Shown piece by piece: positions 4,747 through 27,500 of a stretch of 64,000 bases of DNA. Each line of letters starts with the position of its first letter. The stretch's first letter is position 1. The DNA lies in NCBI RefSeq assembly GCF_050920415.1, contig NZ_CP169309.1. One strand, written 5' to 3'. A model generated the notes under the pieces. That model made no database searches and was not told the origin of the DNA. It worked only from the letters and a program-made list of their open reading frames with translations. Source of the stretch: Escherichia coli (lineage in GTDB: Bacteria; Pseudomonadota; Gammaproteobacteria; Enterobacterales; Enterobacteriaceae). A program made the position numbers and the translations under genes.

Positions 4747-4962
4747 CTACTCTCCCCGCGCCGCCTTACGCCGGTCCTCTCTGATTTTGAAATACAGGTT
4801 AGTCAGGTACGTCAGCAGGCCAAACAGCAGACTCCCCAGCACACCTATCGCCACCCACTGGGACGGAGAGACTTTGTCCAGCAGCTGCAGTAACCAGTAT
4901 CCCGTCCCCACCGCTGACGTGGTGTATGACACACCTGTTGTGATTTTTTCCATCTGGTACAT
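4747..4962 (-). CDS. Holin (lambdoid EssD-like, dual-start motif)
   Basis: 71 aa [71 protein letters not shown]; matches remembered DLP12 EssD; Met-x-x-Met dual start. Confidence 0.85.
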
Positions 4963-5264
4963 ACCCCGTCTCCCGTTATCCGGAAACTGACAACAATAAA
5001 AAAGCCACCCGTTAATTACTGATGGCTCTGATGCATAAACGTCATCATTCCTGACCGTTATGATTGACAATGGTTATCATTTTTATATAAAAATACTCCC
5101 GATATGTGTTACATATCATTTCTCCACGGGGAATATCCCCACGCCAGCGTCAGACTCGTTTTCCCGTTCTCTTCTGTGCTGGCGTTTTTTTTATTATGAT
5201 GTCGGTACATTTATCTCCAGCACCAGGCTTTCAATCTCAACACCATACGCGGAATTTTTGGGCG

Positions 5265-5295
5265 TAAAAAATCCCCTCCGGTGAGGGGATTTGCT
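5265..5295. terminator. Hairpin terminator downstream of TerB-like operon (possibly bidirectional)
   Basis: CCCCTC-ACCG-GAGGGG stem with T/A runs on both sides. Confidence 0.5.
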
Positions 5296-5523
5296 TATGT
5301 AAACATTTACACTGCTTACCTGCATGGTGCCGGGTGCCTCCCGGTGAATTCAGTATCAGCACCTGAATCCGCAATTATCCCATATACCTACTTGCTGATT
5401 GCCCCTCCGCACAGGGGGATTCACCATGCGAAATTTTTTTAACAAATGCTCAGTCTGACAGGCAACTGTCAACTGGCTGAATTGTGAGACATTTAAAATT
5501 TTCGGGGCGTAACTGATACCCGG

Positions 5524-6289: not shown

Positions 6290-6366
6290 TGGCGCGTTGT
6301 ACTGGATTCGAACCAGTGACCGATTGCTTAGAAGGCAATTGCTCTGTCCGACTGAGCTAACAACGC
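6290..6366 (-). tRNA. tRNA-Arg (anticodon UCU), phage-encoded
   Basis: Minus strand GCGTTGTTAGCTCAGTCGGACAGAGCAATTGCCTTCTAAGCAATCGGTCACTGGTTCGAATCCAGTACAACGCGCCA folds as a canonical cloverleaf with anticodon loop CTTCTAA. Confidence 0.85.
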
Positions 6367-6467: not shown

Positions 6468-6542
6468 TGGTGGCCCTGCTGGATTTGAACCAGCGACCTG
6501 GCGATTATGAGTCGCTCACTCTCACCACTGAGCTAAAGGGCC
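6468..6542 (-). tRNA. tRNA with CAU anticodon (resembles E. coli tRNA-Ile2, lysidine type; could be Met type)
   Basis: Minus strand GGCCCTTTAGCTCAGTGGTGAGAGTGAGCGACTCATAATCGCCAGGTCGCTGGTTCAAATCCAGCAGGGCCACCA; anticodon loop CTCATAA; acceptor stem one pair short of canonical. Confidence 0.8.
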
Positions 6543-7791: not shown

Positions 7792-7998
7792 TTACTGGCA
7801 GCGTCTGAATTTATTCCCGTACCCGCCGTTATCCTTCGCCAGACCCGCCAGAACTAACTGAGTCAGTATTAACTGGCACCGGACTTCGCTTACTCCGGTA
7901 GTTCTCGTCATCATGCGTGGCGTTACCCACTTGTCAGCAGGTAAGAAATGAAGGACTGCGGCGGCGGTTTCTGTCATATCTTGCTGTTTTAGCATGTT
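7792..7998 (-). CDS. Hypothetical small protein
   Basis: ORF from ATG (MLKQQDMTETAAAVLHF...) with AAGGGA RBS; function unknown. Confidence 0.4.
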   Translation of the reverse strand, partial: NMLKQQDMTETAAAVLHFLPADKWVTPRMMTRTTGVSEVRCQLILTQLVLAGLAKDNGGYGNKFRRCQ

Positions 7999-8264
7999 TT
8001 TTCCCTTCTGGTTAACATGACATACCAATAACTCTTGTCTAAAAAGCCAGCAAGATAAAAAGTCAGTATTCACGACCACCAGCGTGTTTACTGTACTGCA
8101 CCAAGTTTACAGGTACAAAAAAACCGCTCAGCGGCGGGTTTAAGTTGTGTGGCGAAGTAACCACTCTTAACAGCATATTTGATTTTTTACGATTGTAAAC
8201 GGTTGATTATTCATCTCCAATAAAAATAATTGTGTAGGTATGCCCTTAACAATGGATAAGAAAC

Positions 8265-8711
8265 ATGAATAAAATGACTGTATTATTACTTAGCGCAACT
8301 ATCATTTCAGGTTGTACTTCTTCCGTACCATTGATAAAGAAAACTCAATCAGGAAAACCTGAGGGGGTTTATCAAAATACGACAAAAGATAAAGTCAAAG
8401 ATGCCCTTGTGAATTACTGCAATAGTAGAGGGTTGATAATTTACAACGCGGATAACAGCAGTGTTATATGTGGTAAAGAACTGGAAGGCGGGTCTGCTGT
8501 TTTTGGACAAATGTTAATCGGCAATGCCTATTCAACAACCCCGGTATCAAAAGTCAGATTTACTATCGCTCAAGTTAATAACGATACAAAAGTGTGGGCC
8601 GATATGTGGATGGAAACTCAAATGGCAATGGGGCAAGTACAACAAATGGCTATAACAGACAACGCAAGCAAAAACACTATCCAACAACGTCTTGATGAAT
8701 TAAAACCTTAA
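8265..8711 (+). CDS. Lipoprotein of unknown function (moron antisense to late transcription)
   Basis: 148 aa; signal peptide MNKMTVLLLSATIISGC with lipobox Cys; AT-rich codon usage unlike neighbours. Confidence 0.7.
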   Translation: MNKMTVLLLSATIISGCTSSVPLIKKTQSGKPEGVYQNTTKDKVKDALVNYCNSRGLIIYNADNSSVICGKELEGGSAVFGQMLIGNAYSTTPVSKVRFTIAQVNNDTKVWADMWMETQMAMGQVQQMAITDNASKNTIQQRLDELKP

Positions 8712-12072: not shown

Positions 12073-12395
12073 ACTTTCAGGCCCCTCTCATGTAACCAGT
12101 GGGTTGCACGCAGCCTGGCGTTTTCCTCACCGGCAAGCAGTGAGCGGATAATCCCGACCGCCTCGCTGTCGTCGTCCTTCATCGCAGTATGAAGCGTTAT
12201 CCCCCGGGCCACGCCACGCTTTATCGTGATGACGCCTTTTTTCTCCAGTGCGCGAAGATGCTCCACCGCTGCATTCACTGAACGGTATCCCAGCATGGTT
12301 GCCACCTCCTGATTGGTTGGCGGGAAGCCACGTTCTTTCTGATAAGAAATCAGCATATCCAGCACCTGCTGCTGGCATTGAGTTAACGTCGTCAT
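12069..12395 (-). CDS. LexA N-terminal-like winged-helix DNA-binding protein (no peptidase domain)
   Basis: MTTLTQCQQQVLDMLISYQKERGFPPTNQEVATMLGYRSVNAAVEHLRALEKKGVITIKRGVARGITL parallels the LexA N-terminal domain; ATG overlaps the upstream gene stop (ATGA). Confidence 0.75.
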   Translation of the reverse strand: MTTLTQCQQQVLDMLISYQKERGFPPTNQEVATMLGYRSVNAAVEHLRALEKKGVITIKRGVARGITLHTAMKDDDSEAVGIIRSLLAGEENARLRATHWLHERGLKV

Positions 12396-13044
12396 GCCGC
12401 CATCTCCCTGACCAGTTTTTCCGCCTGCTGGCGAACCTGCGCCAGAAACGCCTCACCACATGCCTCAAGTTCATCGCGCCCGATGTAGCTGATTGCCGGT
12501 CCCTTCCAGGTCTGTCGAAAACAGCAATAGCACCAGCGAAGAAAGCGCCTGTCGGCACCTGCTTCTCATCTTTCGGGATAAACCAGGCAGGCAGTTCAAA
12601 ACCAATACGCCCGCGAATAAAAGCAATATGATCTGCATCTTCCGGCCACCACACTTCGCTGGTGGCAGCTTTGATCAGGAAAACATAGCGCCCGCCTTTA
12701 TCACGCATGGCACTGGCATGTTTCATGATGTAACGCATGCCGGTGATGTATTGCCCCTCATGCTGACTGGCGCGGCTGTATGGGGGATTACCAAAGGCAG
12801 CACCTTTAAGCTCCGCAAGACGTTCTGACCAGTCATGCGCCAGCGCGTTGTCTTCCGCCGTGTAATACGCGGTACATTTGGCGTTATCACCGTCAGTAAA
12901 CAGATCCAGGACAAACGGGCCAAACAGGGTGTTAATTCCCCAGAAAATGTTACCCGGCGTGCGCCACTGATCGCCCACTTCCTTCAGTTCATGGGCTGGT
13001 TTGTTCCGCAGTTCCACCAGCGCCCGGCAATATTTATTACTCAT
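12392..13044 (-). pseudogene. Phage Dam-family N6-adenine DNA methyltransferase with a 1-nt frameshift near 12505-12522
   Basis: N-terminal frame: MSNKYCRALVEL...GAAFGNPPYS...FFAGAIAVFD. C-terminal frame: QTWKGPAISYIGRDELEACGEAFLAQVRQQAEKLVREMAA, ending in TGA overlapping the next ATG. One extra A in the A4 run (about 12518-12521) would join them. The 316-aa ORF-track read-through has an Arg-rich junk tail. Confidence 0.7.
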
Positions 13045-13532
13045 TAAGCCCCCACGTAATTCCCTGACAGATACCACTCTTCACCCGATGCAGCGCGCTT
13101 GCTACTTTTCCGTAAGCACCGCTCACGACGCGCCAGAAAATTGTTTCGTTCTGGCAGGGAGTGGCTTTCACGGAATGCCGCCATCCACACGGTTGCAGCA
13201 CGACGAAATAAGCCCCTGGACTCCAGTTCTTCCGCCTGGCGGGTCAGGCACAAAATCACCCGTGGATCGTTAGTGCCGACATAGAAATTGCGCACAGGTC
13301 TGGTTTCACGAACTGGTTGTGGTTCCGGCTCCTGCGCTCTCTCAGTCAGGCGTGGGAAATGTCTGCGTGTATCTCCTTCACAACGGTGAGCCACACGCCC
13401 ACTCTGACGTAACTTGCTTGCTGACTGCAGAACGCGCTGTCGTGAGTAACCAGCAAAAGCATCCGCAATGTCTCCGGAAGTACACCCCGGATGGGCTTCA
13501 ATGAATTTCTGAACTTCATTCAAAAGACTCAT
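13044..13532 (-). CDS. Hypothetical protein with N-terminal HTH-like region
   Basis: 162-aa ORF; stop overlaps the methyltransferase start (TAATG); no family recognised. Confidence 0.6.
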   Translation of the reverse strand: MSLLNEVQKFIEAHPGCTSGDIADAFAGYSRQRVLQSASKLRQSGRVAHRCEGDTRRHFPRLTERAQEPEPQPVRETRPVRNFYVGTNDPRVILCLTRQAEELESRGLFRRAATVWMAAFRESHSLPERNNFLARRERCLRKSSKRAASGEEWYLSGNYVGA

Positions 13533-14353
13533 AATCCCCCCCTGAATCCTGCCGGGATCTGGCTGTAGTCCACGTTGTCGTAACTGGCTTTGAAGTACGG
13601 GTCCTCGCGTCTGGCTGCAGATACCGCAGGAACTTCCCAGGATTCTTCGAAATGACGATCCGGACCAAAGAACGTGACAGCCTGTTTCACAAATTGTGTG
13701 CCGCTGTTACCCATCGCAGATACCCAGCCCGCGTAGCGTTTCACACCTTCCAGCATGGTTTCGGGGTTTACTCCCTCATTCAAACGGGCTTTCCAGGCTT
13801 TGAAGGCTGCAGATTTTGAATTGCCACCAGCACGTTTGGGATATGCCAGCCATGCCTGCTCAAACTCCGGAGAGTATTCCGGTCGGTTTGAACGAACTCG
13901 CACGGACTCATCAACTGATGCACCAACAGCTATTGGTTCATTGACTGGTTCTTTGACTGGTTCAAAAGAGTGACTGGTTCTGGGTGAATCTCCTGCACTA
14001 CCCCCTGGTGCAACTCCTGCACTACCTGGTGAATTTGCTGCACCAGATAGTGAATTATTTGCACTACCCCCTAGTGAATCTCCTGCACCATCCAGATGAA
14101 GGAGATAGATATTACTTGAGTTACCTTTTTCACCTTTCCGGGTGACTTTTTTTACCAGCCCGGACTCACAAAGGGCCGCAATATGATTCATCACAGAACG
14201 TTTGCTAATCTCGCACTGGTCAGCAATATGCTGGTAGCTGGGCCAGCACTCACCCTGATCGCTGGCATTATCAGCCAGCTTGATCAGAACCAGTTTTCGC
14301 AATGGATTACCCACTCGAATTTTCATCGCTTTAACCATCAGCTCCATACTCAT
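13529..14353 (-). CDS. Replication initiation protein (HTH N-terminal domain, internal repeats, C-terminal helicase-loader-interaction-like tail)
   Basis: 274 aa; N-terminal HTH (WPSYQHIADQCEISKRSVMNHIAALCESGLVKK), central Gly/Ser/Ala/Pro repeats encoded by iterons, C-terminus ...SQIPAGFRGGL resembling the DnaT C-terminus in this window (SQIPPGFRG). Confidence 0.7.
   Translation of the reverse strand: MSMELMVKAMKIRVGNPLRKLVLIKLADNASDQGECWPSYQHIADQCEISKRSVMNHIAALCESGLVKKVTRKGEKGNSSNIYLLHLDGAGDSLGGSANNSLSGAANSPGSAGVAPGGSAGDSPRTSHSFEPVKEPVNEPIAVGASVDESVRVRSNRPEYSPEFEQAWLAYPKRAGGNSKSAAFKAWKARLNEGVNPETMLEGVKRYAGWVSAMGNSGTQFVKQAVTFFGPDRHFEESWEVPAVSAARREDPYFKASYDNVDYSQIPAGFRGGL
13940..14100. repeat. 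Iteron-like direct repeats (candidate origin of replication) inside the replication initiator gene
   Basis: GACTGGTTC three times, then about five imperfect 18-20 bp repeats of the TCCTGCACTACC(C)CCTGGTGAA type. Confidence 0.6.
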
Positions 14354-14574
14354 GCTGCACCTCCGAGATGCTTCATGTTTTTTCCGGAGCGAAAGGCTAT
14401 AAGCGGCATACTGACGCGGTAATTACGGCCCAGCGGTTCACAAATCACCTTCTGACATTCACGGTCAACCAGGCTAACACGTAGAACATGCCCTGCAGGC
14501 GTGGTGTACCACTGACCCGGTCGAGGACAACGGAAAGTCTGATTGGTAAACCGTTTGAAAATATTCCGGATCAT
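14350..14574 (-). CDS. Hypothetical small protein
   Basis: 74-aa ORF overlapping its neighbours' ends in operon; no motif recognised. Confidence 0.4.
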   Translation of the reverse strand: MIRNIFKRFTNQTFRCPRPGQWYTTPAGHVLRVSLVDRECQKVICEPLGRNYRVSMPLIAFRSGKNMKHLGGAA

Positions 14575-15722
14575 TTGCGCCCCCTTACCTCGGAAGAGTT
14601 CAGCGACGAATGAATAAGACGGGCAAGAAATGCCGCATCGTTAATTCGGTCATACAGACTTACAGCCAGCGGTGATTCAGCTTTTTCCAGCATGGGATAA
14701 AGCTGCTGCAACCAGACCTGATGAATTGATGAAATGTAGGAATAGAGTACGCTGGCGTTATGTGCAACGTCGCTCGGTACAGCGGGCTTTGAAAGCTGTT
14801 TCTCCATCTGGTTAAAGGCATTGATGTATGCCTCTTTGAACTGGGCAGCACGTTTACCCGTGAAACCCATAGCAAGAAACGCAAAACCGTCGCGGGTTAT
14901 TTGATAGCAAGGTAGTTTGCGGCCTGTGCAATCGGTGTAATCACTCACCGAAAAATTGCGGGCAGTGAATGATGCGGAGCATTCAAGCGTGCGGATCTTT
15001 TTCAGTACATCGTCATGACGTTTGGAGAAGAAGTTGGCAACAGCCAGGGATGAAGTAACAGCCTGACCATCAACGATGGCAATTTCAGGTTGAGTGAGGG
15101 TTGGGATCGTAGCCATGATGGCAGCCTCTTTGGTGATTTTTAATAACTCACCACCAAGGCTTTCCACGACCTTATTGGTGGTGAGACGTACAGGGGTGGA
15201 AATACCGGTCACCAAAGAACCCGGCCCAACCGAAGTTGGCCCTGCACGCCCCACCATAATTTGGGCGTAATGCTGCTCATGACACAAAAAAACCGCAAGA
15301 GCGCGGTTGTGCGCTTTGGTGAATTCCGGGTTTCCACGCCCGGCACCCGCTTTATAAGGTGCCTGAACAGTGTAACGTCCCGGAATGGCAGAATCAATGT
15401 GCTGGTGGTCCTTCACACTCAACAAAATCACGCCTGAATTTCCACAAAGGGCTAAAGCACTCATGCGGGTAGTCTTTGCGAAGATAGATAACGCGCTGTG
15501 TTTCTGGCTCCCAACGAATAACATGAACATAAAGTCCTCTTCCGTCACGAAACCAGCGGTTAAGTTCCTGCACAACTCGCCCCCCACAGTCAGGTAAAGT
15601 TCTCTGTGGTTACTTACAGCCAGGAGATTTGGTAATCTGCATTCATGCCGTAACAACAGGTGTTCAGCGACGCTGACCACCAGCTGTTGCGACAAATGGT
15701 TATTTGCCGTTAAACTGTTCAT
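14571..15722 (-). CDS. Rha-family phage regulatory protein with about 200-aa N-terminal extension of unknown function
   Basis: C-terminal half from MATIPTLTQPEIAIVDGQAVTSSLAVANFFSKRHDDVLKKIRTLEC... is Rha-like; N-terminal half is in the same frame with no stop; ATG at 15722 overlaps the upstream TGA (ATGA); an internal ATG at 15116 has an AAGAGG RBS. Confidence 0.7.
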   Translation of the reverse strand: MNSLTANNHLSQQLVVSVAEHLLLRHECRLPNLLAVSNHRELYLTVGGELCRNLTAGFVTEEDFMFMLFVGSQKHSALSIFAKTTRMSALALCGNSGVILLSVKDHQHIDSAIPGRYTVQAPYKAGAGRGNPEFTKAHNRALAVFLCHEQHYAQIMVGRAGPTSVGPGSLVTGISTPVRLTTNKVVESLGGELLKITKEAAIMATIPTLTQPEIAIVDGQAVTSSLAVANFFSKRHDDVLKKIRTLECSASFTARNFSVSDYTDCTGRKLPCYQITRDGFAFLAMGFTGKRAAQFKEAYINAFNQMEKQLSKPAVPSDVAHNASVLYSYISSIHQVWLQQLYPMLEKAESPLAVSLYDRINDAAFLARLIHSSLNSSEVRGRK

Positions 15723-16282
15723 GCGTTAGTTTCTCCACAGACACAAAACGCCACGACGCCCGGAGCTGCACACTCGCGGGCGTCACTCTTTTCTGGAGCG
15801 CAAAAGATTTTGTAGACCAGTGCTGCATGCTCCTGGAGCTTCGAAATTGACAGATACAACTCATCATTAATTGCTGTCTGCTCGTGTGGCTCCACTACCC
15901 CATCTTCGATTGCCGAACGAATCTGCTTTGAGTAACTCCCGATCTGTTCGATGACTTCCAGCAGGCGCTGGTTTATATCGGCGTTCTCTACTTCCTCAAT
16001 TTCAGGAAGCGATACAAACACCCCACCAGCAGACTGTGCGACAGCATCCGCAATGTAGTGAGTGCCAGCCGCGCGCTGTAAAATCATTGCCCATCCCAGC
16101 GGGAAAATCTGATCGCCATCTGCACGAAGGCGGTTGAATAAAGCGTTCTCTGTTACATCCAGCCACTCAGCAGCTTCAGCGTAACCCCCCGGCAACGCCG
16201 CGATAGTTTTTCTGACAGCTTTCACGTACCACTCAGGCTGTTTTTCTACTTTCCAGTGATGCTTACCCACGGTTAGCCTCAT
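15719..16282 (-). CDS. YdaT-like / CII-position regulatory protein (putative)
   Basis: 187 aa immediately downstream of the Cro-like gene, as ydaT follows ydaS in Rac; family call is by position and loose similarity. Confidence 0.5.
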   Translation of the reverse strand: MRLTVGKHHWKVEKQPEWYVKAVRKTIAALPGGYAEAAEWLDVTENALFNRLRADGDQIFPLGWAMILQRAAGTHYIADAVAQSAGGVFVSLPEIEEVENADINQRLLEVIEQIGSYSKQIRSAIEDGVVEPHEQTAINDELYLSISKLQEHAALVYKIFCAPEKSDARECAAPGVVAFCVCGETNA

Positions 16283-16313
16283 CGTTCTGTGGTTAAAAAT
16301 TAAAGGTGTTCTG

Positions 16314-16514
16314 TTAATCTTTCGGATAGATATCCGGTCTTAAGTCAGATTTCGTAATTGCACCTGACGTGCATTGCTCAAGTTTTTTAGCCAGCACAAA
16401 ACTGGCTTTTTTATAACCATTGAAAACCAGCCGTAAGTAGCCTGGTGTTGAGCCAACTTTTCCGGCCAACTCGCCCTGCTGTTCTTTGGTTAAAGAGTCC
16501 CAATACGCTTTCAT
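16314..16514 (-). CDS. Cro/YdaS-like HTH repressor
   Basis: 66 aa MKAYWDSLTKEQQGELAGKVGSTPGYLRLVFNGYKKASFVLAKKLEQCTSGAITKSDLRPDIYPKD; divergent from cI across the operator region. Confidence 0.75.
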   Translation of the reverse strand: MKAYWDSLTKEQQGELAGKVGSTPGYLRLVFNGYKKASFVLAKKLEQCTSGAITKSDLRPDIYPKD

Positions 16515-16604
16515 ACAATATGTACCTCTTATATACATATTACATGATTGAAATGAACCTTCAAGATACTTGTACCCTATCGGTACAAAGGTTTTAATTT
16601 CGTT
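16515..16604. promoter_or_regulatory. OR region: divergent pR/pRM promoters with at least two operator palindromes
   Basis: ATGTA-N9-TACAT at about 16520-16538 and TTGTA-N9-TACAA at about 16570-16588, between divergent cro and cI starts. Confidence 0.6.
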
Positions 16605-17279
16605 ATGAAAACAGTCCATGACATCCGGCGGTCTAACGCCAGAAAACTGAGAGATGGTGTTGGCGGGAATTCTTCCTTTGCCACCATGATTGATCGCGAA
16701 CCAACCCAGACCAGCAGGTTTATGGGAGATGGTGCTACTAAAAATATCGGTGACAGCATGGCACGGCACATCGAAAAATGTTTCGACCTGCCTGTCGGAT
16801 GGCTTGATCAAGAACACCAGACAACGAACATCACAAAAAAACCTGATGTTTCAATCACTAATAAACAAATAACGTTAGTCCCTGTCATATCATGGGTACA
16901 GGCCGGAGCATGGAAAGAAGTTGGCTATTCTGAGGTTGATTTGAGCACAACAGAAACATATCCCTGCCCTGTACCCTGTGGCGAAATGACTTATATATTG
17001 AGGGTGATTGGTGATTCAATGATTGATGAGTACCGTCCGGGGGACATGATTTTTGTCGATCCAGAAGTACCAGCCTGCCACGGCGATGACGTTATTGCAT
17101 TGATGCACGATACAGGTGAAACCACCTTCAAAAGGTTGATAGAAGACGGGACACAGCGTTATCTCAAAGCATTAAACCCCAACTGGCCTGAGCCTTACAT
17201 TAAGATAAACGGTAATTGCTCTATCATTGGTACAGTTATTTTCTCAGGAAAACCAAGAAGATACAAAATTAAAGCCTGA
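16605..17279 (+). CDS. cI: CI-type prophage repressor (HTH plus S24 peptidase/LexA-like autocleavage domain)
   Basis: 224 aa; C-terminal S24 domain with GDSM motif (YILRVIGDSMIDEYRPGDMIFVD). Confidence 0.9.
   Translation: MKTVHDIRRSNARKLRDGVGGNSSFATMIDREPTQTSRFMGDGATKNIGDSMARHIEKCFDLPVGWLDQEHQTTNITKKPDVSITNKQITLVPVISWVQAGAWKEVGYSEVDLSTTETYPCPVPCGEMTYILRVIGDSMIDEYRPGDMIFVDPEVPACHGDDVIALMHDTGETTFKRLIEDGTQRYLKALNPNWPEPYIKINGNCSIIGTVIFSGKPRRYKIKA

Positions 17280-27309: not shown

Positions 27310-27500
<191 letters not shown>

Follow-up and report, generated by a model that had tools for sequence, protein, structure and literature searches.

The minus-strand open reading frame (ORF) at 14571..15722 of the Escherichia coli DNA analysed here is a single frame of 383 codons that runs without an internal stop into a gene for a Rha-family regulator. 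The DNA, referred to below as the window, is a 64,000-nucleotide (nt) stretch of contig NZ_CP169309.1 in NCBI RefSeq assembly GCF_050920415.1. The ORF probably represents a P4-type RNA immunity cassette with nested products. The cassette belongs to a lambdoid prophage of the e14/cdtI-like kind, where it lies in the early rightward operon between a CII-like gene and replication genes. Two RNA genes, of the isrK and C4 types, lie within the frame. The two recognition loops of the C4-type RNA, a′ and b′, pair with target boxes a2 and b2 at the ribosome-binding site of the Rha gene and with decoy boxes a1 and b1 in the isrK-type RNA, as shown by covariation across alleles.

A first-pass annotation of the same sequence had described a Rha-like region starting at residue 203, behind an unusual N-terminal extension and coupled to the upstream gene, and had left the choice between a fused two-domain protein and two products made from nested starts. 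Its observations stand: the internal start, the frame open from the ATG at 15722 and the overlap of that ATG with the stop of the upstream gene, ymfL, are all borne out by the sequence and by the placement of the Rha family models. The proposal of nested starts gains support from homology to the P4 eta/kil genes and from selection against stops. Missing from that annotation were the RNA genes, the putative internal promoter, the terminator and an overlapping gene of the DUF4222 family; the 202 residues that it took for an extension overlie the DUF4222 gene and the two RNA genes.

The first ATG of the ORF (15722-15720) overlaps the TGA of the 187-amino-acid (aa) upstream gene as ATGA. Residue 203 is the methionine of a second ATG (15116-15114), preceded at a spacing of 8 nt by the Shine–Dalgarno sequence AAGAGG (15130-15125). 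The start context, GAGGCTGCCATCATGGCTAC, is the same as that of P4 kil and is kept in relatives with other effectors. The C-terminal 181 aa form a full-length member of the Rha family as defined by PF09669 (aa 223-308, 106-108 bits; cut-off 29.9) and TIGR02681 (aa 214-312, 103 bits; cut-off 45.95), a definition that excludes the 202 residues found upstream here. In the record of phage cdtI, the Rha protein is labelled 'putative antirepressor'. RefSeq, through the Prokaryotic Genome Annotation Pipeline (PGAP), gives the identical sequence as one 383-aa 'Rha family' coding sequence (WP_001087304.1).

The isrK and C4 elements are present in all relatives tested, and also in Gifsy-1 and P4. The minimum free energy (MFE) fold of the C4-type RNA is the Rfam structure (-44.6 kcal/mol, z=-4.1). 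Box b2 (15128-15136) overlaps the Shine–Dalgarno sequence of the Rha gene (15125-15130), and the duplex energies in the window are -15.0 kcal/mol for b′–b2 and -9.1 kcal/mol for a′–a2. The conserved AUG at the 5′ end of the C4 element (AAUUAUGGUGGG) coincides with the start position of the translated leader orf45 in Gifsy-1. Just upstream of the isrK-type element, a promoter-like site occupies the position of P4 PLE and Gifsy-1 PisrK and aligns with both promoter regions.

In the MFE fold of the whole leader, b2 and the Shine–Dalgarno sequence (15120-15140) pair with an invariant GGUGGUG located 3′ of C4 (15150-15175). This motif has complementarity to the 3′ strand of the C4 outer stem as well; in the folding model, the two pairings suggest alternative structures resembling those described for Gifsy-1.

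Loop–box pairing across alleles

Relatives of the cassette were drawn from E. coli genomes, phage records and viral contigs. Among them, the b′ loop occurs in 12 versions and the a′ loop in 8, and at least 15 combinations of specificity are represented. In each of the 15, both C4 loops are complementary to a1/b1 within isrK and to a2/b2 by the Shine–Dalgarno sequence of the Rha gene. Mean duplex energies over the 15 alleles are -15.0 kcal/mol for cognate versus -4.6 kcal/mol for non-cognate b′–b2, -12.6 versus -3.3 kcal/mol for b′–b1, -9.1 versus -2.1 kcal/mol for a′–a2 and -9.4 versus -2.4 kcal/mol for a′–a1.

In a 14-allele alignment, two-sided, compensatory changes are present at 6 of 7 pairs in a′–a1, 8 of 9 in b′–b2 and 7 of 9 in b′–b1. 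The a′–a2 pairing was judged by duplex energies, as MAFFT places a 3-nt gap within the box and pair counting is impossible there. Across the 14 alleles, 94-97% of the box–loop cells are paired, compared with about 40% in slid registers, and neither the observed covariation score nor the paired share was reached in any of 500 shuffles. The C4 stems are 100% paired and contain compensatory changes. The terminator helix as drawn in the window was rejected as covariation evidence: only 55% of its cells are paired, since in other alleles the stem is in another register.

The a and b boxes reassort independently (alignment A2; loci L093, L121, L004, L007 and L041). For example, L093 combines the a boxes of L004 with the b boxes of L007. 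Such reassortment, seen at the level of sequence, implies that recombination would occur inside the approximately 90-nt C4 gene and that specificity would be combinatorial.

Selection on the leader and the nature of the extension

The upstream 606 nt of the long ORF contain 13 and 9 stops in the other two frames, and a given frame was stop-free in only 2 of 5,000 dinucleotide shuffles of this sequence. The same frame is open in all seven relatives fetched (82-99% DNA identity). A chance ORF is ruled out by these shuffles together with the following tests of stops across alleles. The cassette group used in them was set by the motif at the effector start, not by openness, and contains 24 distinct leaders of 246 or 249 nt. 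Stop triplets fall in 31 alignment columns out of frame and in none in frame. We then considered the codon slots in which the observed column variation could form a stop, in 23 leaders (L124 was left out). Stops are realised in 0 of 25 such slots in frame 0, 15 of 26 in frame 1 and 14 of 24 in frame 2 (approximate Fisher p=1.3e-7). The avoidance holds upstream of the C4 AUG (0/12 in-frame slots versus 12/23, p=0.0016) and downstream of it (p=9.5e-5). Leader insertions and deletions are multiples of three, and in L124 the frame is restored by paired -1 and -2 deletions, between which the local frame is shifted.

Among the matches listed, 50 distinct cassettes are directly followed by a Rha-like gene, and all 50 are in frame with it, the effectors being 38-86% identical. 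In the same 50, the open frame reaches 162 nt or more upstream of the C4 AUG and 57 nt or more beyond the isrK 5′ end, where they have an in-frame ATG that often overlaps the stop of the preceding gene. A stop between the two parts in Rha homologues, named by the first-pass annotation as the observation that would speak for an error or a recent fusion, was thus not found among these cassettes; stops between leader and effector do occur in Gifsy-1-type cassettes with other effectors. In other contexts, the long frame begins about 159 nt upstream of the C4 AUG, often with an ATG overlapping the previous stop. The 84 distinct C4 instances among the matches listed divide into 57 with the long-ORF layout, 14 with a short leader ORF and 13 that are closed. 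From these sequence comparisons, translation of the leader, not the leader sequence, appears to be what selection keeps.

Tandem arrays of two or three cassettes (ash-ash-Rha) occur in some prophages, as at L014 1191-3348, L011 534-2044 and L124, which has two C4 copies. Each long ORF in such an array starts at an ATGA shared with its predecessor, and the isrK and C4 specificities are particular to each ORF.

The amino-acid sequence of the leader is itself unconserved and changes wholesale with RNA specificity between alleles. Residues approximately 121-201 of the ORF are the translation of the isrK-type and C4-type RNA genes, and residues approximately 50-110 overlie the DUF4222 gene, which is read in another frame. 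Of the 32 variable sites in the region of this gene, 22 are at third codon positions of the DUF4222 frame. Changes in that frame are synonymous in 21 cases and non-synonymous in 12 (20% synonymous expected), whereas in the long frame 2 are synonymous and 31 non-synonymous. Purifying selection there acts on the DUF4222 frame, not on the long frame. Mosaic breakpoints are found within the ORF at about nt 361-384 and nt 631, and other strains carry this leader, together with the first 8-9 codons, fused to a 76-aa effector. Because the leader residues vary, the DUF4222 frame is the conserved one and mosaic breakpoints lie inside the ORF, we do not regard the extension as a protein domain.

The domain search on the N-terminal part that the first-pass annotation had proposed, made here with Pfam, NCBIfam and PHROGs, returned only 'Ash' and long PHROG profiles; residues 1-120 matched no Pfam family. 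The 'Ash' match, Pfam Phage_ASH (PF10554; aa 117-213, 57 bits), coincides exactly with the segment that begins with isrK, includes C4 and ends at the ribosome-binding site. We rejected it as a real protein domain: it covers the RNA stretch, its P4 member overlies the CI RNA, and its residues vary with specificity. The PF10554 family appears from these sequences to be a conceptual translation of the isrK/C4 leader. In P4 (L136), PF10554 matches the historical 'cI 137 aa' ORF (8168-8584) over the CI RNA, and the epsilon gene (7888-8175) matches PF25738, not PF10554. PF10554 has been treated as a P4 Ash/epsilon protein domain, and serves as a protein marker, in papers on Shiga toxin (Stx) phages and P4-like satellites (PMC8628076, PMC8951638). 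RefSeq, Pfam ('Ash') and PHROGs all treat such leaders as protein domains, where the stretch would consist of RNA genes in a translated leader.

A related question concerns the ymfM gene of E. coli K-12. In the K-12 e14 element (L135, NC_000913.3), a DUF4222 ORF (5002-5181) overlaps ymfM (4823-5161) and extends 20 nt beyond its stop. This ORF is intact, encodes 59 aa and is 64% identical to the window copy without gaps. K-12 YmfM has the frame and position of the N-terminal third of the long ORF, with 32% identity with gaps. The label 'cell division inhibitor YmfM' (SfiC) rests, in the part of the preprint considered here (bioRxiv 10.1101/2020.11.19.390815), on overexpression of a cloned ORF; the filamentation experiments described there used a cloned 'ymfM ORF' without distinguishing between the two frames. 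The active SfiC product may therefore have been mis-assigned between the ymfM and DUF4222 frames, as far as the sequences indicate, and it may be asked which frame at K-12 ymfM specifies the division inhibitor.

Coordinates of the cassette, its neighbours and other features of the window are collected in Table 1. Replication-type genes follow the 74-aa gene downstream of the Rha gene. Elsewhere in the window, a phage N6-adenine methyltransferase gene (12392-13044, minus strand) appears frameshifted, and PGAP labels it 'frameshifted' at an identical locus; the second half of the 316-aa ORF in this region (12127..13077) is Arg-rich nonsense. The three plus-strand tRNA matches in a row may mark a prophage boundary or attachment site.

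Table 1 Positions of the cassette elements, neighbouring genes and other features in the window
Feature	Position	Strand	Basis
ymfL, CII-like gene, 187 aa	15719..16282	-	PF06892 E=8.5e-15; phrog_101 CII-like activator; PGAP name ymfL in identical locus L001
Long frame, 383 aa, P4 eta equivalent; from upstream of the putative internal promoter through both RNA genes into the Rha gene	14571..15722	-	
DUF4222 gene, 59 aa, GTG start, other frame, wholly within the long ORF	15394..15573	-	PF13973 E=9.5e-14; phrog_1343 full length E=1e-36
Promoter-like site TTGATT-17-TACACT, separated from the isrK 5′ end by 6 nt	15369..15397	-	read from sequence; inferred
isrK/seqA-type small RNA (sRNA)	15286..15362	-	Rfam RF01394, 67 bits (gathering score 50)
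Decoy/target boxes within the isrK-type RNA	a1 15331-15337; b1 15314-15322	-	covariation a′–a1, b′–b1
Intrinsic terminator ending the isrK-type element	15285-15308	-	terminator scan
C4/CI-type antisense RNA	15174..15261	-	Rfam RF01695, 83.6 bits (gathering score 45)
C4 recognition loops	b′ 15209-15217; a′ 15196-15202	-	
Conserved AUG at the C4 5′ end; same frame as the Rha gene, would yield 228 aa	15255..15257	-	
seqC-like target region (box a2 15161-15167, box b2 15128-15136)	15128..15167	-	
Shine–Dalgarno AAGAGG (15125-15130) and ATG (15114-15116) of the short product	15114..15130	-	
Rha-family regulator, 181 aa, putative antirepressor, at the P4 kil position	14571..15116	-	PF09669 E=4.9e-31; TIGR02681; phrog_821, phrog_518, anti-repressor PHROGs
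Downstream 74-aa gene, ATG overlapping the Rha-gene TGA (ATGA)	14350..14574	-	phrog_1153
STnc100 sRNA	5260-5458	-	Rfam
Two tRNAs	6293-6366, 6471-6542	-	Rfam
naRNA4 element	27396-27478	-	Rfam
Three tRNA matches in a row, equal scores	27618-27937	+	Rfam

Proposed mechanism and competing explanations

By analogy with P4 and Gifsy-1, a weak internal promoter at about 15369-15397 would make a short isrK/seqA-type RNA ending at its own terminator, and transcripts reading through this terminator would yield the C4/CI-type RNA. Pairing of its loops with a2 and b2 would block initiation at ATG 15116, probably with premature termination, and on transcripts from the internal promoter the 181-aa Rha-type regulator and the downstream genes would be kept off. 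The isrK RNA, to judge from homologues, would compete for the C4 loops. Transcripts from the early promoter, arriving via cro and cII, would carry a start ahead of the cassette, at ATG 15722 or a later in-frame ATG. Ribosomes can cross the cassette because the frame is stop-free into the Rha gene; on early transcripts they would traverse the terminator, C4 and the blocked ribosome-binding site, and RNA control would be overridden. The outcome would be an N-terminally extended Rha together with expression of the downstream replication genes. The nested products would thus be an RNA-gated 181-aa form and one or more long forms. Because P4 eta/kil has the same architecture and the same start context, the sequence is best read as nested starts and not as a folded two-domain protein.

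Several points weigh against this reading. The loci were collected by one exact 5′ C4 motif, among the matches listed, and the alleles in the stop tests are related by descent and recombination, so that their p-values are approximate. The promoter-like site matches only 8 of 12 consensus positions, and a consensus promoter scan of 14300-16700 reported none, the assignment being made by position and alignment only. Upstream start candidates are M1 (15722), M65, which is preceded by AAGAGGA, and M87, the PGAP choice in L002 and L005; translation from M1 would cross the DUF4222 start in the other frame. The first 149 nt of the ORF are without a clear coding signature (variable sites by codon position, 11/18/17), with too few variable sites for a stop-avoidance test. 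Finally, the Rha product is a putative antirepressor by family names only.

One alternative is that only an orf45-like leader is translated, from AUG 15257 on transcripts of the internal promoter, giving a 228-aa Rha beside the 181-aa form, with the open frame further upstream functionless. We consider this unlikely. The AUG and the frame are those of the experimentally translated orf45, stop avoidance is strongest downstream of the C4 AUG, and an orf45–anrP fusion has been noted in S. dysenteriae (PMC4825925), but the AUG lies inside the C4 outer stem and has no Shine–Dalgarno sequence. Stops are also avoided in isrK and the spacer upstream of it (0/12 versus 12/23), all 50 Rha-type cassettes among the matches listed are open beyond the isrK 5′ end with an in-frame ATG, and P4 eta begins upstream of the promoter. 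Somewhat less likely still is an annotation artefact, in which the 181-aa Rha is the only product and the open frame a by-product of conserved RNA and shared descent. Such an account would explain why the amino-acid sequence of the extension is unconserved, why an intrinsic terminator and a promoter-like site lie within the ORF, and why 27 of the 84 C4 cassettes elsewhere (among the matches listed) lack the long frame; moreover, the internal start has a good Shine–Dalgarno sequence and is the RNA-gated one. It is countered by the absence of in-frame stops from 25 slots, with 29 of 50 out-of-frame slots realised (p=1.3e-7), by the insertions and deletions in threes and the compensating deletions of L124, and by the in-frame junction kept in 50 of 50 cassettes (among the matches listed) although their effectors are only 38-86% identical. 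Translation of the homologous P4 and Gifsy-1 leaders also has experimental precedent.

Least probable, and in our view very improbable, is a true two-domain protein, in which a folded YmfM/'Ash' N-terminal domain with an activity of its own, such as division inhibition or repressor binding, is joined to Rha. The Phage_ASH match at 57 bits speaks for such a protein, but the type member of that family is the old P4 'cI' ORF over the CI RNA gene. PHROG profiles of 307-324 aa cover both parts, which nevertheless recombine independently. The frame is under selection, yet the leader residues change wholesale with RNA specificity, and in L124 even the local frame changes. The N-terminal third does correspond in frame and position to K-12 ymfM, whose annotation is that of a cell division inhibitor; over this ymfM-like part, however, the ratio of synonymous to non-synonymous changes is 2:31 in the long frame against 21:12 in the DUF4222 frame, and YmfM is only 32% identical to the window, with gaps, against 64% without gaps for DUF4222.

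The P4-type cassette with nested products thus remains our preferred explanation. A fuller version of it, which we put forward tentatively and hold to be possible but doubtful as a whole, is that some 250 nt jointly encode two trans-acting RNAs, their cis targets and a frame selected solely for translation, with ribosome-driven bypass and a specificity code. If this were true, early transcripts would extend into the replication genes, a long isoform of Rha specific to induction would be made, and the box code, with at least 15 combinations, would let co-resident prophages sense or ignore each other. Relatives of the cassette occur in records of Stx-converting and cdt phages, and the scheme can be tested as a model of how induction might be gated by RNA. 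A ready set of orthogonal RNA–target pairs is also available in the specificity-allele alignment.

Relation to known systems

P1 c4 matches part of the query (H68). In the immI region of P1 and P7 (c4 - icd - ant1/ant2), C4 RNA is reportedly processed from the same transcript as its targets. Boxes a1 and b1 lie upstream, and the first gene has a2 and b2 at its ribosome-binding site. An antirepressor is under this control, and heteroimmunity is defined by the specificity alleles. The nested starts of Ant1 and Ant2 are located downstream of the RNA module, and no long ORF across P1 c4 is known to be translated. P1/P7 have icd between c4 and ant, whereas here 57 nt separate the C4 3′ end from the Rha ATG, with no separate ORF.

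Gifsy-1 has isrK followed by C4 (STnc1160), the same order as the window, with the same leader AUG at the C4 5′ end and the same initial frame, and its box b2 abuts the Shine–Dalgarno sequence of the effector, as here. Hershko-Shalev et al. (2016, PMC4825925) showed for Gifsy-1 that some transcription passes the terminator, that IsrK acts in trans and that the orf45 leader is translated, expression of anrP requiring this translation. The differences are that in Gifsy-1 a TGA lies in frame one codon ahead of the leader AUG and orf45 ends in an AUGA overlap with anrP, leaving neither a long ORF nor a fusion, whereas in the window the leader frame enters the effector without a stop. The Gifsy-1 cassette is downstream of a Q-like gene, whereas that of the window is in the early operon. 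We considered the Rha effector as an AnrP homologue and rejected this (BLASTP of the 181-aa protein against STM2616, E=2.2).

The closest counterpart is P4, in which the order of elements is the same: an isrK-like seqA (8615-8692) with its terminator, a C4-type RNA (CI RNA, 8420-8507) and a target at a ribosome-binding site. Four elements of a P4-type cassette are found in the window, namely the C4 fold, an upstream isrK element with boxes and terminator, a b2-type target and a coupled long in-frame ORF. The P4 ORF, of 214 aa, begins in an ATGA overlap with the orf88/alpA stop, runs across the promoter and both RNAs, and has the 65-aa Kil as its C-terminal part; kil and the Rha gene share an identical Shine–Dalgarno–ATG context, and both products begin MAT. 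According to the account of Forti et al. (1999, J Bacteriol 181:5225) given in PMC10111431, and as far as that account goes, a constitutive promoter lies inside eta, its transcript is terminated via CI/seqA interactions, and Kil is translated upon read-through; full-length Eta comes only from the upstream promoter, coupled to alpA, and Eta translation prevents termination. Rfam C4 and isrK models detect such elements inside 'Bro network' genes (PMC10111431).

P4 differs from the window in its short gene, which encodes the 65-aa Kil instead of a 181-aa Rha-family regulator, and in being a satellite with alpA upstream, whereas the window has a lambdoid prophage with a CII-like gene at that place. 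The long frame is about 300 nt longer here and overlaps the DUF4222 gene, and P4 has about 80 extra nt between seqA and CI. The P4 eta/kil and IsrK–C4 layouts are already known; here, the layout is joined to a Rha-type effector in a lambdoid early operon, which would bring Rha-type regulators of E. coli and Salmonella lambdoid prophages under the eta/kil logic.

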